A stretch of 64,000 nt of DNA, taken from NCBI GenBank assembly GCA_028534125.1, contig CM052816.1, positions 48,300,001 to 48,364,000 of the forward strand. Direction: 5' to 3'. Numbering within the stretch: the stretch's first letter is position 1; the number at the start of each line of letters is the position of its first letter. A program made the position numbers and the translations under genes. The notes under the pieces are model-generated. The model saw nothing but the letters and a program-made list of their open reading frames with translations, was not told where the DNA came from and did no database searches. Shown piece by piece: positions 5,390-55,844 of this stretch. Source of the stretch: Lama glama. Its lineage: Eukaryota.

Positions 5390-5790
5390 CACTGGAAACA
5401 TTGTTCCCTAGAGTAAGAACTGCATCTCCCAGCCTCATTTACAGCTAAGGTATGACCAAGTGACAACATTTTGAATAATGTGATGAAAACAGTATTATGT
5501 GAATCTTTCTTATAGAATAGCCAGTCTGAGCCTACTTCTTTGTTTCTTCCCCTCTCTGTTGCAGAGTATATTTATGATAGCTTAATTTGGAGGACTCATC
5601 TTAGCGAATAAAGTGATCTTGTGAATTGAAGCCCAGCATAATGTAAGAACAAGAGAAAGAAACACCACAGTACTTTATGGATCACAATTGCCATAGTTGC
5701 CCTGAACTGACATTTACATTAAAGGGAAATAACATTCTATCTTTTTTAAGCTACTGTTTTCTGGATTTTTACCAGAAAACTGATTAATAT
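5390..5790 (+). mobile_element. MaLR LTR (old MLT1-type)
   Basis: 'tgcatctcccagcctcatttacagctaaggtatgaccaagtgac...gggaaataacattctatcttttttaagctactgttttctggattttt'. Confidence 0.65.
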
Positions 5791-6389
5791 ATATATACAC
5801 AAATTATTCTATATCTCATATTAGCATTATAATAGTTTAGAATATATGTAATACAATATATAAGTATGTATATTAATTATGTACATTTTATTAATGAGGG
5901 AAAAAAGTTCAAAATAGGTAACTCTTCAAGATTACAAAATTACTAAATGATAGAGTTTATCAGATGCAGAAGACTGAAATTTACTGCTTTGCAGACAAAG
6001 TATCATTATCTTGGAAGTTTTAGAAGTTGAGTCTTAACTACTTCACACCTTTGGGTTTACGACCTATACAGGAAACACAAAGATCAGTGAGTGAATGAGA
6101 TCCAAAGTGCCATCTTTGTTAATGACTAGTCAATTTCCTTGTAACTTCCCAAACTTAGGCACCTTGTAAAAGTGTGTTAAGAGAGCCTGGCTTAGACATA
6201 GGCTTTCTTTTTACCCCTACTACCCACTCTGAATTAGAGATCAACTGGAACACAGCAAGAAAAAAAAAAATGAAATAGAGAGAGGAAGGACAATTGGTTC
6301 TGTTTTTCAATAAAGTGGTTACTCAGATCCCTTGTTAAAATGATGCCCTGCAAAAACTAACAATGCACTGGGACATTCTCTTGGCCTGA

Positions 6390-7795: not shown

Positions 7796-9383
7796 GAATT
7801 GATGTGTAAATACATATTTTGACAACTTACCTAGTTTTCTTTCATTTAGACAGAATGGCTAAGAACCTTACTGTTAGATGAACCTCCTTTCCCCCAATCA
7901 CATGTTCCTATAAGAGAAGGTCCAGAGTAATAACCCCTTCCACTGCTCATTTACTCCTCCTCTACGGTGAATTTGGAATAAGGAACTGATGCTGTTTGGC
8001 TCAGCTCCTTCAGCACTTCTAATTTTCAGGTCTCTTGGCCCACAAAAAGAACACAGCCTGGTCAGCTCTTCACTATAAGAGGAATAGGGCTGATTTTCTG
8101 CCACTGGGAAAATCCTGCAGTTGTTCAACTGTTCTGAAGCAACTTTGTATAGTTAAAAGCCTCATTGGCCACGCATTTAAACCTATAATCTCTAATAAAC
8201 CCTATCCTTAAATCTAAGATTTCAATCTTCATCTATTCATTATCTCAATTCTTATTTGTTATTGAACTGCACAGAGGAAGAAAAAGTTTTATTGCTTGAC
8301 TCCCCCGTGAAAACACAATAATTACTTAAAACTTAAAAGTCGTCTCAAAAACTTTCATTTTTAATGTGTGTAACAGTTAGTTAGAAATAAGTAAATTGAA
8401 ATGTGCTATTTATTTCTAAAAGATTTTACTTACTCCAGAAAAAATAATTGGGGTAAAGAGAAAGTCACATCAAATGAATAATCAAATGAATGAAAGGTAA
8501 ACTATGTTTTGGGATATAGTAACATGATTAACATGCATTAAATAATGAACAGGATCTTAAAACATTGAGTTAGTATAGCACAAGGTAGTAGACTATATAA
8601 ACCTATACAAAATTATTAGTTTATTTTGTGTAAAAAAAGTACTAAATTTAGGAACAGTATTCTTTTATCTTCCTACTAAGATCTCTATTTTACTTCCAAA
8701 AATGATAGCCATCACATATGTATTTCATTACCATTGAAAAACTTTTAATTCCAACTGTGAAACTGGTCCTTAGTAATGTGACTATGCTGAAGTGTCTTAC
8801 ATGCCACTTATATTTGAATTCACAGCATAAGGCCTTCCCTTTTGAGTATAGAAAACAGAAATATAGTATGCTAATTTATTTTATAAAGATACTATTCTTT
8901 AAATTATATGGGGAATCCTGGGACTTAAGAAATGTTTGACTTTGGAAAAGAATATAGCATTACTCTCCTCTTAATTCCCACCTCCAGAACAAACAGAAGG
9001 ATTAGAAACTCTAATTCTTGCTTTACCTTATCTACTTATACTTTGAATGATATAAAGCGAAGTTAAACTCGTGAAAATGTATCGTTTTATTTCATTTGTT
9101 TAGACAGTTTAACAAATAGTTTCTTTAGAACATAATTTTCTTTCAATAAATATATGCAGGGAAACAATAAAAGGGAAAAAAGTAACTTTGGTGATTAATT
9201 TAGAAGCAGTAAATATTCACTGCACATCATGAAGTCAGCAACCAGATAAAACATGCCCCTAACGAGGGGTGGGGCCACACAGTATCAAGCAGACCCCAAA
9301 CATGAAAAGATCACTTTTGTATGTGTATGTTCTTACCTCATGTTTTTGTTTTATTTTATATTTCCATGTTTTCATCTCCTATA

Positions 9384-46347: not shown

Positions 46348-46595
46348 CACCTGTGCCAGGTGCTTTGTTTTGTTTTGTTTTTAATAAATCTCCAGATACC
46401 ACAGAGCAGATGGGATTGAGAAAATAAATAAACCAAATTGAAGAAAATCACAGACCAAAATAGGCACAGAGAAATCCCCAATAGGTATAGAATTCATTCT
46501 GCTCAATAGACGCAACTACATTTATAGTCAGCAGGTACAAAGGATTGTGTCCTAGCAGCTAGGTGAGTGTGATTTTCTCAACAAAACTAAAGCGG

Positions 46596-49287
46596 GAGGG
46601 AAGGGAGCGGGGTCTAGGAAGGGGGGTTAAGTCCCCTCGTCCCCCCTGGTTGCCCTCGACTGGGACGGAACAAGGGAGGGGAATGATCGAGATGGCGGTG
46701 GAGGAGCCGTTTCTGGTGCCAGCCCCGCCGCCGCTGCTGCTCAAAGATGAGTCGGGCGGAGGGGGGCAGCCGCACGGTGCAACCGCACCAAGAGGCTGCC
46801 TTCGGGGAGCTCCGCGGCGGTACGCAGTGTGGGCCGGGCCGCACGCGCACTCAGCGGGGTCCCCGGCTCCTGGGACCCACAAGTAGAGCCCCGGTGCTGC
46901 ATCCACCCCTTGCGGCGGCCAGTCACAGCAGCAACTAGGGGCGGCCCCCAGGCGCAGGCGCACGGGGAGGCCCGCTTGTCGGATCCCCATGGGCGAGCCG
47001 CTTCCCCAGACGTGGGGGAGGAGCGACGAGGAGCGGGTGAAGCAGAACTGGACCCCGTAATGGCTATCAGCCCCACCTGGGGGACGTGGTGGGGAAGAGG
47101 AGAAATAGCTGTAATGTAGGGGGAGGTGGTGGAGGCTTCAAACATCCGGCCTTCAAGAGGCGCAGGCGGGTTAATTCGGACTGTGACTGTCTTACCTTCC
47201 AACTTCCTTGGGGTGGGGTAGGGGCAATATCTTTGATCCGCTGAACCTGAATAGTCTCCTGGATGAGGAAGTGAGCCGTGCACTCAATGCAGAGACCCCT
47301 AAGTCATCCCCACTTTCGGCCAGGGGGTTCAGATCTAGTGGAGACCCTCATCCCCAAAGATATTACTGACCTTCTCAGTCTGAATACTTGCACTGATGAG
47401 GCCCAAGTAGTTCTTGCTTCACCACTCAAGACTGGCCAGAAGCGGCATAGACACCGGGGACAGCACTACCACCAGCACCAGTAGCAGCAGGCAACCGGAG
47501 GGAACGATAGCCACTCCCTGCTGCCCACAGCCCCCCTCACTCCCTCACTCCATACAGAGGGCACCACACAGCAGCAGCAGCATAGGGGCCAGAACCGGGA
47601 CGTCCCCCAACCCTATGAACTCAACACAGACATCAACTGCAAGCATGAGGTCTTGTCACCCCTTCCATCTGCCCTGCAGTGTCCCTCAGGCTCCCTTTCA
47701 GCCCCTCCAGCTGCCTCACTTACCTCTGCACCCCAGTCTTCCTGCTCACAACATCGCAAATGTCGCAGGACTTCCAGCAAGTCAGAGGCAGGGGTTCGGG
47801 GTGGAGGCCAAGGTCCCAAGGAAAAGGGCCGAGGCAGTTGGGGAGGCCACCACCAGGTCCACCCACTACCTGCAGCAGGTTTCAAAAAGCAGCAGCGCAA
47901 GTTCCAGTATGGGAATTACTGCAAGCACTATGGGTACCGCAATCCTTCTTGTGAGGAGGGGCACCTTCGGGTGTTGAAGCCTGAGTGGTTTTGGGGTTGG
48001 GACGTCCTAGATCTGGGCTGCAGTGTGGGCCACCTGACCCTGAGCATTGCCTGTAAATGGGGCCTATCCTGCATGGTGGGCCTGTATATTGATGCCCTGC
48101 TCATCCACTCCGCCCGCCAAAACATCTGACACTACCTGTCTGAAGAGCTGCGCCTGCCACCCCAGACTTCTGAAGGGGACCCAGGAGCAGAGAGTGAGGA
48201 AGTGACCACAACCGTCCGAAAGAGGAGCTGCTTCCCAGCCTCAGTGTCAGCCAGCCAGGGCCCCATTGCTGCACCCCAAGTGCCCTTGGATGGAGCTGAC
48301 ACATCTGTCTTCCCCAACAATGTTGTCTTCGTCAGGGGTAATATGTGCTGGATCGAGATGAGCTGGTGGAGGCCCAAATACCTGAGTATGATGTGGTGCT
48401 CTGCCTCAGCCTCACCAAGTGGGTGCATCTGAACTGGGGAGACAAGGGGCTGAAGCGTATGTTTCACTAGATCTACCAGCACCTACATCCTGCGGGCATC
48501 CTAGTACTGGAGCCCCAACCTTGGTCATCTTACGGCAAGAGAAAGACCCTTACGGAAACAATCTACAAGAACTACTATCGAATCCAGCTGAAGCCAGAGC
48601 AGTTCAGTTCCTACCTGACATCCCAGAGGTGGGCTTCTCCAGCTATGAGCTTGTGGCCACACCCCACAACACCTCCAAAGGCTTCCAGCATCCTGTGTAC
48701 CTGTTCCACAAGGCCTGTTTCCCCAGCCACTAAGTGGCCCCCTGAACAGAAAGTGTGCAGAAGCTGCCTGCTGCTCCTCAGGACCTGGGAGAAGAGGAAA
48801 GTATCCCAAGGTCTTTCCTTTCTGGCTCCAAAAATAGTTTCCTTTCTTGGATCTGCAAGAAAGCTTTTCCTGTGTGCTGCCTTAGTCTCTTCCCTACATC
48901 TCTAGCACCTAAGCAGCAAGCCCAGCTGTGCTGGAGTTACCATCATCTTCCTCTCCCCTAGCCCACTGGGCTGGATGGCATGGACTGTTTACTGACCTCT
49001 GTTCTCCTAGGGCACAGAAGGTGGGGGGTATCAAGTACTCTAGCCTTTTTCTCCTGTTCTCCCAAGGAGAGATTCCCATTTCTCCTCGGCCCTTGTCCCT
49101 AACTGCATTTCAGTGGACCACAGATAGATGGACTGAGGGTTAAAAAGGGGAAGCTGGTGGGCAGGCATGCAGGTACTGTGAAAATCCTTCCCTCTACTAT
49201 CCCCCATTGGGAAAGGGGGTTGGGTTTGGAATGTGAGAATAGCACAATAAACTTGATGTTTAGAGCAGTGGCCCCCACCCCTCCAAA
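46596..49287 (+). pseudogene. MEPCE: Processed pseudogene of the 7SK snRNA methylphosphate capping enzyme
   Basis: ATG at 46683 (MIEMAVEEPFLVPAPPP..KDESGGG), '[25 protein letters not shown]', '[20 protein letters not shown]', C-terminus '[31 protein letters not shown]' with TAA at 48731-48733; intronless; stops at 47482-47484 and 48127-48129 plus several frameshifts; 3' UTR with AATAAA at 49246-49251; TSD aaaactaaagcgg at 46583-46595 and 49288-49300. Confidence 0.97.
46650..47180. promoter_or_regulatory. CpG island-like 5' end of the MEPCE retrocopy
   Basis: About 37 CpG in 46681-47040 by hand count, in an otherwise CpG-poor window; activity not shown. Confidence 0.6.
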
Positions 49288-49825
49288 AAAACTAAAGCGG
49301 TATTCTTTCAAAAAAGTGAAGATCTACTATAGAATAAACGATGGTGCTGAGTATAAAAGTCGGTAATTCAGAATAAATCTCACCTTAATTTGGCTATGAA
49401 GGTGACAGTTTATTGCAACCTCTCTCTTTATGCATCTAAATAAGACCTTTTCTAAAATATGTACAAAGGGGCTTGATGCAGGTCTTAAATTCCAAGGAGA
49501 AGACTATTGGGGAAACAGACTAGAAGATAAGTACAATCACTTTCATTAATTATCCTAACCTCAATTCAAAATATAGATGGAAATTCAAAACTTAGCAGTT
49601 AAAAAAATAATAAAACAATAAGATAGAAAGTATAAGATGAACAACACAACAGATGACAGTGAAGACAGAAAAAATAAATTTGGAAATATAATATTTCACA
49701 TTTTTATCAATATTCTTAGATTAGAGAAGACAGCACATCCTTAAATCAAGGACAGATTGCTATTCAAAGGCAAAAAATAATCAGAGAAAAGAAGGCTTTC
49801 TGGACATTAAAGCTATTTTAATAAG

Positions 49826-50829: not shown

Positions 50830-53460
50830 TCATCAGACTGAATGAAAATAGAAGAGCCAAACATATGCTGTAGAATATGTTAAGCATCCTACTTTAAATA
50901 TAAATACATAGATTAAAAGGAAAGGGAAGGGGAAAGATGTACTAAGCAAACACTAACCAAAATAAAGATAATGCTTTATTATAAAGCAACAGCTTTAAAG
51001 ATGATTACCACACAGGTATCAGTCAAAGTAGTCTTCAGTGCAAATAAAATTGTCACAGGCAAAGAAGGGCATAATAAAATGATCAGTTCTTCAAGAAAAT
51101 ATAACAATCTTAAGTTCAAATCTACCTAAATACAAAGCTTCACAAAAAAAGGTAAAGGTTAAAAAAGAAATATTAAAAGTACAATTATAAATTGTTCAAC
51201 ACTCCTTTGTAATTAATCAACAGGACAATAGCAGAGAAAATTAGCAGAATAAAATAGACCAGAACAACACTTCTAATCAGATAGACCTGATTCATGTTTA
51301 TAGGATGCTTCATTCAACAAAAGTAAAATATACTTTCTTTTCAAGTATATATGGAACATTAATCAATATTGACCTTATTCAGGATCATAAAACAACTCAA
51401 CAAATTGATAAGATTAGAAATCATATAAAGTATAATCCTGGAATATAAGAAAATGAAATAAAGAGTCAATTAAAGAAGATATATGGAAAATCTACAAGAT
51501 TTTGAAGTTAACTCCTAAACAGCCTAGGGTCAAAATGCTCAATGAAAAATTAATTTGAATTGAATGAAAAACAAAAGTAACATATCAAAAATTTTGAGAT
51601 GCATTAATAACTGTACATAGAGTGAAAATTATAGCATTAAATGCTTATATTGGAAAAGAAGAAATTCCTCAAATTAGTAATCTGAATTTCAACCCTAAGA
51701 AACTAGAAAAAAAAAAACAAATGAACTAAAGCAAACTGAGACATAAGGAAGAAAATAACAGAGAAGACATTAATGATACTGAACACAGTAAAAGAATAAG
51801 AAAAAAAATCCAATGATTTCAAAACTAGTTTTTTGAGTGCTTAAAAAAATTCATATGTCTACACAGACGGATCAAAAAAAATGAATAAATTAAAAACAAA
51901 ACCAAAAAACAGAAGAGATACATATTACCAACACAATGAAGGAAAAAAAAAAATACCACTAGAAATCCTACATTTGTTAAAAAGACCACAATTAAACACT
52001 AGGAACAACTTTATGCCCATAAAGTCAACATTTTACATGAAATTGTCATAATTATTTCAAAAATACAGACTATTAAATCTCATTCAAGAATAGATAACCT
52101 AGATGTCTCTTATAAGCTAAATCTCTTTAAGAAACTAAATCATATTTAAAACTCTTTGAATAAGAAAAACCCAAACCCAAATTATTTCACCAGTGACTTC
52201 TACCAAATATTTCACATTTCATATTGTCATCTAGAAAAGAGGAGAAGAGGGGCTATTTCTCTATTATTTTTATGAGGTCAGAATTGTCCTAATACCAATA
52301 GCAGACAACAGTATTACAAGGAAAAAATTATACAGATCAGTATTCCTCATGAACATAAACTCAAATATCTTCTATAAAAAATCAGCAAATGAAATCAACC
52401 AATAAATAACAAGGATAATACACCACAACAGAAATGGAGTTTATTCCAAAAATTCAAGGCGATTTCAAGAGCTATACATCAATGGACATGACTCATTCTA
52501 TAAATAGACTTAACAAGCTCAAGATATTCTCAATAGATTCACAGAAAGAATCTGAAAAAAATAAACATCGATTTATGATAAACTCTCAGTAAATTCGGAA
52601 TAAAAGGAATTCCTCCACCTGGTAAGGGTATCTAAAACAATCTATTGTTAACATCATACTTAATAGTGAAGGTCTGTATGCCTTATCCCTAAGATCAGCA
52701 ACATCAGAATAATCTTTTTCCTGACTTATATTGTGCTGGATATGCTAGCCAATATAATGGTAAAGTGAAATAAATTAAAAGCACACAGAATATAAAAGTA
52801 GAAGTAGACATTTTCTATTCACAGATGAAATGACTTTCTAAGTGGAAAATCTGAAAAACTCAAAAACTTTTCTAGAATTAACAGAGTTTACCAAGTCTTA
52901 AGACACAAAGTCAACTTAAAAAAAATACCAATTTCATTCCTACCTAGTAGTGATGAGCAATTAGATTTTTTTAATTAATTTACTTTAGCACTAAATAAAA
53001 CTGAAATATTAGGTAAAAACCCAACAAAAATATGTTCAAGATATGTATGTTGAAAACTGTAAAATGGAAGTAATTAAACAACAAATAAATGAAGAGATAT
53101 ACCATGGTTTTAGACTGAAAAACTCAATATTATAAATTATTCCCAAAAAATAAACTATCCCCAATTTGATCTGTAGATTCAGTGCAAATCTAATTAAAAT
53201 TCCAACAGAATGTCTGTAGATATGTGAAGGCTGACTATAAAATTTATATGAAGAAAATAAACTTGAAATGAGAAAAATGAAACTACAGAATAAATCTGGA
53301 AGATTTCCATGCCTCAATTTAAGTATGTACTTAAATGATACACTAGTGAAGACAGTGTGGTACTGATGATAGATCCATTCCATAAAATTAGACTAGAAAA
53401 TAGATTCCCCCAAATTTAGTCAACTTTATTTTTTAAACAAACTTATAAAGCAATCCACTG
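50830..53460 (+). mobile_element. Old L1 ORF2 (endonuclease through RT), decayed
   Basis: A-rich sense L1: 'gattaaaaggaaagggaaggggaaagatgtactaagcaaacactaacc' (EN), 'ttttatgaggtcagaattgtcctaatacc', 'ggataatacaccacaac', 'tctattcacagatgaaatgact' (FADD-like), 'gtgaagacagtgtggtactg'. Confidence 0.9.
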
Positions 53461-53552
53461 GTTGCCTCTCCTTCTTCCCTTTTTCCTTTTCCATTTTGTC
53501 TCCGCACCCTCCACCCCCATCTACCTCACAAATTATATTATCCCTACCTGAA

Positions 53553-54830
53553 TCCTGGTTCGGTGTTAAGGCGGCACAGGGGACTGTCGCACACCATCAT
53601 CTTGCAGCCCACCAGCTCCCAGGTATTGTTGATGCCGTATTTAATCATGCTCGGGTGCTCCGGGAAGAGGCTCAGGTAATGACCGACAGGTTCTTGGGGA
53701 GTCCCACCTGCAGAAGCAACTCAGGACTTAAGAGCCTGGATCTTCAGTCCTCCACCTACTTCTTGAGGACTTAGTGGCAGCTGAACGCCTCCCAGCTGGG
53801 CTCTGACATAGGGGCTGTAAGCCGCTTTGAAGAGAGTTGAGTGATACCAGCTTGGTGGAGAACCCCCGCCTGCTGCCAATGAGATGGCTCAAGGTGAGGT
53901 GGTGGTCAGCCACGCCTTCAGTCCGGTAGAACTCCGCCAGGTGTGAGCCGTCCAGCATCTTATTCCAGAACACTCGGTCGACGGTGAGGTACCTGGCGGG
54001 CGCGGCTGGCTCTCTCTGGGCGGGGCGACAGAGCGCGGCAGCTTACCTGGTGCGCATGCGTGCGCAGCCCACTTTCCCGCCCCCTCCCGCTCCCTGTAGT
54101 CGCCGTTGCTCACCTGCGAGCGGCCGCAGCCCTGAGGGCTTTTGGACACAGTCCATTGGGAGCTGCAGGGCCTCCTCTGGATATCCTGGGAAGAAGGTGC
54201 CATACTGGGTGTTGCTGGGGCTGGAACAAAGCACCAGAAGTTCCAGAAGGAGCACTTGAGGAGGTTGTCTGTGGGCATGTCGGTGAACCCCAACTCTGGA
54301 AAGTTCTGCGGGAGTTGCGTGCCGACCTTGAGCAGGTTGTGCAGATGTGCTCTGTTGTGAAGGACGCTGGGGGCCGAGAAGTTGTAGCGCTTGAAGGACC
54401 TGTCCCTCTGGGAGCCGCTGGAAATCATCTCTGGCTCCAGCTCTGCCTCCTGCTTAGAAACGTTGGTGCTGAAGACACTGCCTTTTCACACCCCGTAGGT
54501 CTTCAGGGTCACTTCAGTCAGCAGTTTCCTGTTCCCGAGCTCGCTTCACTCCCTCTTGCCCGCCCTCCCCGGACCTGGGGGAGCTTCAGCTGCACCTTGT
54601 TCTCCATGCCGTCCGCCGCTCCAAACACCCGGGGCTTACTGGCTGCACCTTTGTCCACGCCGAGCCACTGGTTGGACAAGGCCTTGCTGAAGCCCATTTT
54701 GTAACTGAGCAGCCACGGGAGGTGGCCCTGGCCAGGCCTTCGGGTGCGAGGGGGAGACACGCTGAGAAACACCCAGGCCTCCTGGCTGCCCTGGCCAGGC
54801 AATGTCCTCGCCCTTGGCGGTAAGCTCCCA
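53553..54830 (-). pseudogene. FARSA: Processed pseudogene fragment of phenylalanyl-tRNA synthetase alpha subunit (about residues 61-499)
   Basis: Minus-strand peptides 'WELTAKGEDIA', 'KMGFSKALSNQWLGVDK..PRVF', 'MISSGSQRDRSFKRYNF...LLKV...GFTDMPTDN..SFWNF', 'EALQLPMD', 'HLAEFYRTEGVADHHLTL', 'MVCDSPLCRLNTEP'; colinear with no introns; many frameshifts. Confidence 0.93.
53881..54130. promoter_or_regulatory. CpG-dense patch with NRF1-like, GC-box and MYB-like motifs inside the FARSA remnant
   Basis: About 24 CpG in 250 bp by hand count; tgcgcatgcgtgcgca at 54051-54066; gggcgggg at 54018-54025; cccgccccc at 54076-54084; function inferred only. Confidence 0.45.
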
Positions 54831-54863
54831 CCAACTGATAGGAATGTTGTAAGAGATTTTATT

Positions 54864-55312
54864 TGTACTATTGGTGATGAAGGTGGTGGAGGTTTTTATA
54901 CCCCCGGGGCGGGATGTCACTGACTGCCGTTTCTGCAGTGCTGGGTATGCAGTCAGCAAAATAGCTGCTGTTCTTGTTTTGGACGTTAAGCATTTGCTTG
55001 TGCACTTCCTTCATGAACATGCAGCTTCTGAACACAGTGACCACAGTCAGACAGCAGCCGTGGCAGAGGTCAGAGGCTGCCATCGTGCTCTACCGGGTGA
55101 GCTCCAGCATTGACTGGGCCGAGTACTGCTGGCTGCCTTGGCTGCTTAGCCAGGCAAAGCCAGAATGAAGTGCAAGTAGGGGAAGTGGACCATGTTCCTA
55201 ACAGCTTGCATAGGTCAGCACTGAGCTGGTCTGGGAAAGACTGGAAGGTGGTTACCCGACTCATGCCTGCCGGCACCAGGTGGTCCAGGTCACTGTAGGT
55301 GGGCGTGGTCAT
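54864..55312 (-). pseudogene. Beta-tubulin pseudogene fragment (about residues 217-372; isotype not assignable)
   Basis: 'TTPTYSDLDHLV..MSRVTT..FPDQLSADLCKL', '[36 protein letters not shown]...[10 protein letters not shown]', 'TFITNST'; frameshifted. Confidence 0.95.
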
Positions 55313-55844
55313 CCTTTTCCAATTGCAAAAATTAAATAACTAAAACTCAGCACAAAGAAAACCTAGAAAAAATAAATCAGTTTAAAATGTCAGATTTCTT
55401 TATCCTATCTGTAAAGCTCATTAGGACCAAGCTTGCTGATCTAATTTTTATGAAATTGAGTATACATATACACATATGACTTTTATTCTTTAAAATATAT
55501 ACACAAACTTTTTATGCCACTGTGAAATGTATTTCATTTTCATCTTTTCTCAGTTCTCTGCGAGAGACCTGAAGACAATGAACTAAGGGTGAGCAAATGA
55601 CACTGAACAGAACAAGGACCAGACACAGATGTTTGATGGGGATAGCTTGCTTCCAAATAATCCTTGGTGAGTAGTCCTGCAAAAGTAGATGGCAAAATGT
55701 ACTCTCAAAGAACTAGAGCTTTTATGAGTAAAGTATGTTGCAGTGTATCAAATTGTTATTTTTCCTATAAATGAGAATAGATGAGTTCACATCTCTGATA
55801 AATAATATAGTATACCATATAAAATTAAATTCACTTTTTTGCTT

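Follow-up and report, generated by a model that had tools for sequence, protein, structure and literature searches.

The window analysed here, a 64-kb stretch of contig CM052816.1 of Lama glama, contains a chimeric insert of ~1.75 kb that lies on the minus strand and is therefore antisense within ORF2 of an old L1 element. Read along the minus strand, a beta-tubulin piece (55311-54833) is followed by a FARSA piece (54830 to ~53558). The features of the locus, in window coordinates, are as follows.

51278..53461, plus strand: old L1 ORF2, sense on the plus strand, forming the left flank and the target
53462..53557, plus strand: pyrimidine-rich stretch of 96 nt, from the last clear L1 base to the FARSA end
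53484-53496 and 55312-55324, plus strand: left and right copies of a 12/13 direct repeat, 10 nt of it exact
53558..54830, minus strand: FARSA-derived intronless piece, residues ~60-498, starting at base 34 of exon 2 and ending in exon 13, ~27 nt short of the stop codon
54831..54832, minus strand: two bases, gg, between the last tubulin-like and the first FARSA-like base
54833..55311, minus strand: beta-tubulin-derived piece, residues ~217-385, all from the last coding exon, by PDB and DNA alignment
55312..55480, plus strand: A-rich right flank, weakly L1-like

All own-genome searches were run in a genome of 2.35 Gb. The 901-nt stretch around the junction of the two pieces (54500-55400) was recovered in 20 public sequencing runs, with 0.91-1.00 of the sampled 31-mers present, which makes an assembly artefact unlikely. 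These runs span four organism labels and nine studies, and five of them may represent the source sample. At least one other retrocopy-like stretch is present elsewhere in the window (46.5-48.9 kb).

The FARSA piece was compared with the FARSA gene of the same genome, which is located on another contig and whose exon borders were taken from splice sites and checked by translation. Positions 54830-53558 are colinear with exons 2-13 of this parent gene (11 HSPs, 69-85% identity). A global alignment shows every parent exon junction (11/11) as contiguous sequence in the window copy, and the FARSA piece is thus a processed, RNA-derived copy. An ORF at 53889-54485 matches residues 177-267 of the human PheRS alpha chain (3L4G_A, E 3.6e-29). 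An intronless FARSA piece of approximately residues 61-499 had been proposed from the letters alone, and this proposal holds with limits of ~60-498. FARSA similarity starts 33 nt inside exon 2 and is lost ~27 nt (~8-10 codons) upstream of the stop codon, in agreement with the earlier observation that it stops just short of the stop.

The minus-strand ORFs of the neighbouring piece match solved beta-tubulin chains in the PDB over residues 214-256 (E 1.7e-8) and 299-362 (E 4e-20). At the DNA level, positions 55311-54865 show 67-77% identity to beta-tubulin sequence at 18 places in the same genome (loci L014-L022 were used for the DNA alignment). The tubulin identity of the piece, previously placed at residues ~217-372, is supported by both kinds of match, but its extent may be somewhat greater: the 33 bases at 54864-54832 align weakly with tubulin codons 373-385, and local alignment reaches 54833 for three of six tubulin loci and ends at 54865 for the other three. 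As the piece lies within one exon, intron loss cannot reveal its origin, and an RNA origin is suggested by its FARSA partner. The tubulin piece has eight indel runs and is not readable as a gene, and the FARSA piece has 20 indel runs and many stops. With both pieces broken in this way no working gene is possible at the locus, which is an ancient, dead retro-insert with no sign of function.

The two halves have the same transcriptional orientation and are directly joined, or are 33 nt apart if the weak tubulin tail is rejected. The sequence-only reading had placed them within approximately 15-33 bp of each other. Their adjacency stands, whereas the size of the gap depends on the weak alignment, being 0-2 bases if it is accepted and 33 bases if it is not. 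The two bases gg at 54831-54832 could be filler or mutated bases of either parent, and any microhomology at the junction is illegible after ~20% decay. The join is inside an exon of both genes and so did not arise by cis- or trans-splicing or by read-through transcription. A 181-nt probe across the junction matches only itself in the 2.35-Gb genome; the genome-wide search for further copies of the junction that had been suggested thus shows it to be unique. When the junction-spanning open frame (54636-55010) was searched against the PDB, the single match was unrelated (E 0.92).

We searched the 64-kb window with the FARSA gene region and 12 tubulin loci using blastn and found no other tubulin or FARSA coding piece. 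The matches to the FARSA gene outside the two halves are confined to five short ranges at 20.8-39.6 kb, which we take to be repeats of FARSA introns. Three other ranges match tubulin loci, of which those at 33.5 and 34.8 kb coincide with L1 ORF2 matches and that at 52.0 kb is inside the old L1 of the left flank. Tubulin sequence resuming left of 53553 had been named as a sign of independent or nested insertions; none was found there, nor was a FARSA 5' part found right of 55312. The lack of resumed pieces argues against one retrocopy nested in another.

To date the halves relative to each other, each was compared with its own-genome parent, using the best paralogue (L014) as the tubulin reference. 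Overall identity to the parent is 77.1% for the FARSA half (1262 aligned bases) and 73.6% for the tubulin half (481 aligned bases), with 126/1262 and 57/481 transversions, respectively. The lower identity of the tubulin half is due to its CpG-rich third positions: 92/481 of its bases are in parental CpGs versus 111/1262 in the FARSA half. At codon positions 1+2 the halves differ from their parents at 173/840 (20.6%, FARSA) and 66/322 (20.5%, tubulin) sites, giving a tubulin/FARSA divergence ratio of 1.00 (bootstrap 95% CI 0.77-1.27). At non-CpG sites the values are 251/1151 (21.8%) and 83/389 (21.3%), with a ratio of 0.98 (0.77-1.22). Three other tubulin paralogues gave 21.1-22.7% at codon positions 1+2. 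Clearly different ages, which the sequence-only reading had regarded as a pointer to separate insertions, were therefore not observed, and the equal divergence from the parents suggests that the halves arrived at the same time. The mammalian neutral rate is ~2e-9 per site per year, and decay of ~17-21% would place the insertion on the order of 100 million years ago.

On the left, the insert is bordered by the old L1. Its ORF2 was matched by tblastn with ORF2 pieces of younger L1s from the same genome (E down to 3e-15), and an nhmmer profile built from 25 old L1 copies matches 52979-53425 (E 7e-46). The parent FARSA gene has a 3' UTR of ~250 nt, with AATAAA at 8211 of locus L032. A MAFFT alignment of parent exon 13 and the 3' UTR with the window, and with the tails of a related copy on contigs C12 and C27 (see below), yielded no convincing 3' UTR match past the stop region. 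The earlier observation that a FARSA 3' UTR and a clear poly(A) are lacking is thereby upheld. The 96-nt stretch at 53462-53557, which separates the FARSA end from the last clear L1 base, has a best local score of 32 against 16 old L1 copies (null 20.9 ± 2.2), which was reached by none of 300 dinucleotide shuffles. MAFFT lays this stretch, together with its C12 and C27 counterparts, along the next L1 segment, although identity is only ~50%; identity to the majority L1 base is 47-51% for this stretch and the right flank. A targeted 16-copy L1 profile matched neither flank. A genome search with the 73-nt tail at the FARSA end found only the tail itself, and its best local match is 19 nt in one old L1 locus (E 0.011). 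From these alignments it is likely that 53462-53557 is L1 continuing, i.e., target DNA, rather than FARSA 3' UTR or poly(A). Positions 53468-53505, the only purine-rich tract (92% purine), were considered as a decayed poly(A) and rejected, as the distal part is common to C12 and C27, is already G-rich there and aligns with L1.

Contigs C12 and C27 each carry a partial copy in which the left-flank L1 and the 3' part of the FARSA piece are again joined. Over 7 kb the contigs show 86% identity to one another, which indicates a later segmental duplication. The copy they carry consists of L1 in sense orientation, the same L1/FARSA junction as in the window, and antisense FARSA from exon 13 back into exon 8. 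Its L1 is 5'-truncated and starts abruptly inside ORF2 (equivalent to window position 52350), a short A run closes the copy, and a TSD-like repeat of 13 nt flanks it. We read it as a putative retrocopy of an L1-sense read-through transcript of the window locus. Among the 387 columns with the same base in C12 and C27, the window copy shares a difference from the parent with the C12/C27 copy at 20 sites, the window copy alone differs at 66 sites, the C12/C27 copy alone differs at 35 sites, and all three differ at nine sites. A frame-breaking 1-nt deletion is common to both copies. The shared junction and deletion, together with 20 shared versus 66 window-only sites, indicate a common retro-insert and an early split, which in turn suggests that the missing 3' UTR and poly(A) are original features of the insert or nearly so. 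The C12/C27 copy stops short of the tubulin junction and says nothing about that junction.

The right flank is harder to assign. It is 62% A over 60 nt, a value reached by 0.15% of windows. Its summed local scores against L1 are 504 (null 434 ± 29; reached by 6/300 shuffles), while its maximum local score was reached by 19/300 shuffles. MAFFT puts its distal 110 nt near the L1 position that would be expected if L1 resumes after the insert. Several direct searches with the right flank were negative: a genome search found the query only, and blastn and tblastn against 27 old L1 loci gave no matches. A comparison with young L1 DNA carries no weight, as the left-flank control failed as well. With tblastn and 228 ORF pieces from eight younger L1 loci, the best hit (E 0.011) is to the wrong part of ORF2 and is not significant over 228 queries. 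The 25-copy old-L1 profile picks up the left flank as well as four further L1 fragments in the window, whereas the right flank gave no match. With weak support from the summed scores and the alignment position, the right flank is probably a continuation of the same L1. Further right the well-conserved final kilobase of L1 is missing, which implies that the L1 was broken again within a few hundred bases.

The sequence-only reading had left three origins standing: template switching between two mRNAs, capture of cDNA at a break in the flanking L1, and one retrocopy landing inside another followed by deletion. The equal divergence of the halves, the direct mid-exon junction and the lack of resumed pieces favour a single event and disfavour nested or independent insertions. 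Our preferred, still tentative, reading (probability roughly 45%) is that a single cDNA arose by a template jump from FARSA mRNA to beta-tubulin mRNA and was inserted by a non-classical route. The template jump, the enzyme, the mode of integration and the insert's true ends are all elements that we infer. A reverse transcriptase, presumably L1 ORF2p, would have begun copying FARSA mRNA ~9 codons before the stop codon and run back to codon ~60, in the middle of exon 2. It would then have jumped onto beta-tubulin mRNA at codon ~385 and copied back to codon ~217, and the order of the parts fits a reverse transcriptase moving 3' to 5' from FARSA onto tubulin. The resulting cDNA may have been fixed into a nick or break in the L1. 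Because there is no FARSA 3' UTR, poly(A) or convincing TSD, the most likely mode of priming is microhomology at an internal site, as known from endonuclease-independent or break-repair insertions, rather than the poly(A) priming of classical TPRT.

A more elaborate version of this history is possible though doubtful. The locus would be a fossil of the poly(A)-independent, TSD-less break-repair capture of a template-switched two-mRNA cDNA in an L1 that was still transcribed, and very soon afterwards a read-through transcript in the L1 sense would have delivered antisense FARSA sequence to another site, from which the C12 and C27 copies later arose by duplication.

Alternatively, classical TPRT with the L1 endonuclease may have inserted this one chimeric cDNA, in which case the 10-13-nt repeat would be the TSD and the ~60 nt between the repeat and the FARSA end would belong to the insert, ending in a 4-base A run. 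We consider this unlikely. The repeat itself, noted earlier as a weak TSD candidate, does exist (10 nt exact, 12/13 when extended); its right copy abuts the tubulin end, its left copy directly follows aaaa, and a repeat at the tubulin end has a P of ~0.016, both by shuffling and against 196 real flank 30-mers. The site is also a boundary between a pyrimidine tract and an A-rich tract on the plus strand. However, 36 repeat families of similar size are present within 1.9 kb, this repeat (family D18) among them, and as a TSD it is probably due to chance; we give it about one chance in four of being a true TSD. The 60-nt tail required by TPRT matches neither parent 3' UTR nor anything else in the genome and resembles the next L1 segment, with the score that no shuffle attained. 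If 53462-53557 is L1, the left repeat copy is ~60 nt away from the insert. In addition, C12 and C27 lack an A run at the corresponding place, and the presumed nick site agrees poorly with TTTT/AA (the consensus as quoted in PMC1920257).

Compared with the preferred template jump, an improbable origin is the joint capture of separate cDNA or DNA fragments of tubulin and FARSA mRNAs at one double-strand break in the L1, where they would have been end-joined with no template switch. It would account for two internal pieces of equal age that lack poly(A) and a convincing TSD and are separated by 0-2 unassignable bases, and the capture of nucleic acids at breaks is a model discussed in PMC1920257. 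The shared orientation and the 5'-tubulin/3'-FARSA order are what one run of reverse transcription is expected to produce, and weigh against fragment capture, though weakly, by about 2:1; the sequence itself is compatible with either origin.

Two independent retrocopies, adjacent or nested, would require subsequent deletions that took away the 3' end of the tubulin copy and, from the FARSA copy, both the 5' end and the 3' UTR with its poly(A). Old loci do gather deletions, as the number of indel runs in the FARSA piece illustrates, and another retrocopy-like stretch is close by. Nevertheless, the confidence interval of the age ratio calls for two simultaneous hits on the same strand within a few hundred bases, and at least two deletions must have erased every trace of UTR, poly(A) and inner TSD. 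The FARSA/L1 junction already had its present form when the C12/C27 copy arose, very early, and neither tubulin left of 53553 nor a FARSA 5' part right of 55312 is present. We regard this origin as very unlikely.

It is likewise highly improbable that the window copy is itself secondary, i.e., that an L1-sense transcript of a lost master locus carrying the antisense chimera was retrotransposed here, with the apparent tubulin 5' end marking only where that transcript stopped on its 3' side: copying of such an L1-sense transcript certainly happened once (C12/C27, with truncated L1, A run and 13-nt repeat), the right flank is A-rich and a 13-nt exact repeat is found at 49667 and 55365, but an L1 5' boundary near 49680 was not confirmed, a 13-mer match in A-rich DNA has a chance of ~0.1 by a rough estimate, the A-richness also fits the expected L1 segment, and no master locus was found in the genome. 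Premature polyadenylation with the 13-mer as a TSD for the L1 was rejected for the same boundary, since neither a genome search nor Pfam (14 ORFs, no relevant families) confirmed the L1 5' end. In a separate protein search, a 40-aa L1 ORF had no match other than its own sequence. A secondary copy would leave the origin of the tubulin-FARSA joint unchanged.

Template-switch chimeras are a rare but already known type of reverse-transcription by-product. In PMC2104539, those made by LINEs are described as directly fused, same-orientation copies of different RNAs (features i-v). The insert resembles these chimeras in that two different cellular RNAs are fused directly in the same orientation, in that its 3' part (FARSA) is 5'-truncated at an apparently random non-splice site, 33 nt into exon 2, and in that its halves are of equal age. 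The chimeras described there usually have a full-length small RNA as their 5' part and, as their 3' part, a LINE that retains its 3' end, whereas here both parts are protein-coding mRNAs. Unlike feature i, the 5' part is not full-length, as the tubulin piece starts at residue ~217, and unlike those chimeras the 3' part lacks its 3' end and poly(A). Feature v, flanking short direct repeats, has a possible counterpart in the 12/13 repeat, with its left copy set off by ~60 nt if L1 intervenes.

Non-classical, endonuclease-independent L1 insertions (NCLI) are recognised in PMC1920257 by a truncated 3' end, the lack of both a poly(A) tail and a TSD, and a site that departs from the L1 endonuclease consensus. 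The insert is similar to NCLI in its 3' truncation and the lack of a poly(A) tail, and probably also in lacking a TSD and in its poor fit to an L1 endonuclease site. NCLI are defined there on L1 sequences and verified by empty orthologous sites, whereas the present insert consists of copies of cellular mRNAs with ends that we infer. The locus fits neither the template-switch chimera family nor NCLI fully.

Like an ordinary processed pseudogene made by L1 in trans, the insert is an intronless, 5'-truncated and decayed copy of a housekeeping mRNA in repeat-rich, AT-rich DNA. Unlike such pseudogenes, it has no 3' UTR, poly(A) or clear TSD of 7-20 bp abutting both ends, and a second, unrelated mRNA is fused at its 5' end. 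For the mRNA/LINE-1 chimeras catalogued in human, 10.1101/2025.02.02.635956 considers as mechanisms template switching, RNA ligation and twin priming. As in those chimeras, mRNA fragments would have arrived with copies of other RNAs in one retrotransposition event. The human chimeras reported there join mRNA to L1 and mostly keep the hallmarks of TPRT (TSD, endonuclease motif), whereas at this locus the L1 was apparently the target rather than a component of the insert, and convincing TPRT hallmarks are missing. A full-text literature search, limited to FARSA-pseudogene names, found no papers and thus no report of this chimera.

The locus is of value because it documents, in a natural setting, the capabilities of a LINE reverse transcriptase. 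Chimeras of one mRNA with another that lack poly(A) and a TSD are seldom documented because standard retrocopy finders require these hallmarks, and such products can become fixed and persist for roughly the age of placental orders. If break-repair capture followed by recopying is the true history, the locus would be a three-step record of the shuffling of housekeeping sequences driven by retrotransposons, datable across mammals. Pseudogenes made of internal fragments of two genes placed end to end call for caution in annotation, as they are not necessarily the result of two events. Furthermore, inserts inside an L1 can be recopied in antisense by read-through L1 transcripts.

Two further contigs of the assembly, C12 and C27, each carry a partial copy of the L1 element together with the 3' part of FARSA. 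The copy lies at the following positions (C12 coordinates in brackets refer to the whole genome assembly, G000):

L064 (G000:C12:57522000-57531900), 4052 to ~5985: L1 with antisense FARSA copy
L065 (contig C27), 4333 to ~6150: L1 with antisense FARSA copy, second contig

In this copy, a 5'-truncated L1 ORF2 is followed by antisense FARSA that begins in exon 13 and extends backwards as far as exon 8; a short run of A and a repeat of 13 nt resembling a target site duplication (TSD) are also present. We interpret the C12/C27 copy as having been retrotransposed from a read-through transcript in L1 sense. It was later duplicated, as C12 and C27 share 86% identity across 7 kb. A short tandem array with a unit of ~13 nt is located in the FARSA exon 9/10 region of the C12 copy (L064 ~5770-5850), and is missing from both the window copy and the parent FARSA gene.

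Within the window, an exact 13-nt A-rich repeat occurs at 49667-49679 and 55365-55377. This could be the TSD of the old L1, provided that the element starts at ~49680; a 5' boundary of the old L1 near window position 49680 was sought and not confirmed. On the plus strand at ~46500-48900, the window also contains GC-rich long open frames that, judging by a sequence motif, resemble a retrocopy of a methyltransferase gene, named MEPCE in the sequence-only reading.

The last exon of the genome's own FARSA gene (L032 7941-7985) passes, as assembled, through a G/C homopolymer run, and its frame alters the last ~12 residues. With one base less, the exon would have the ending found in the other frame. 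Either an error in the assembly or true variation could explain the altered ending.

Four young L1 loci used for comparison (L067, L072, L077, and L078) each contain a run of exactly 500 N within or adjoining ORF2, and a fifth (L076) contains 105 N; these runs are either gaps or withheld sequence. One C11 locus has two tubulin-like segments ~700 bp apart (G000:C11:20822627-20822759 and 20823313-20823775; L017 and L031); the match of the first segment is confined to the initial 130 nt of the query. The pair may be a partial tandem duplicate.
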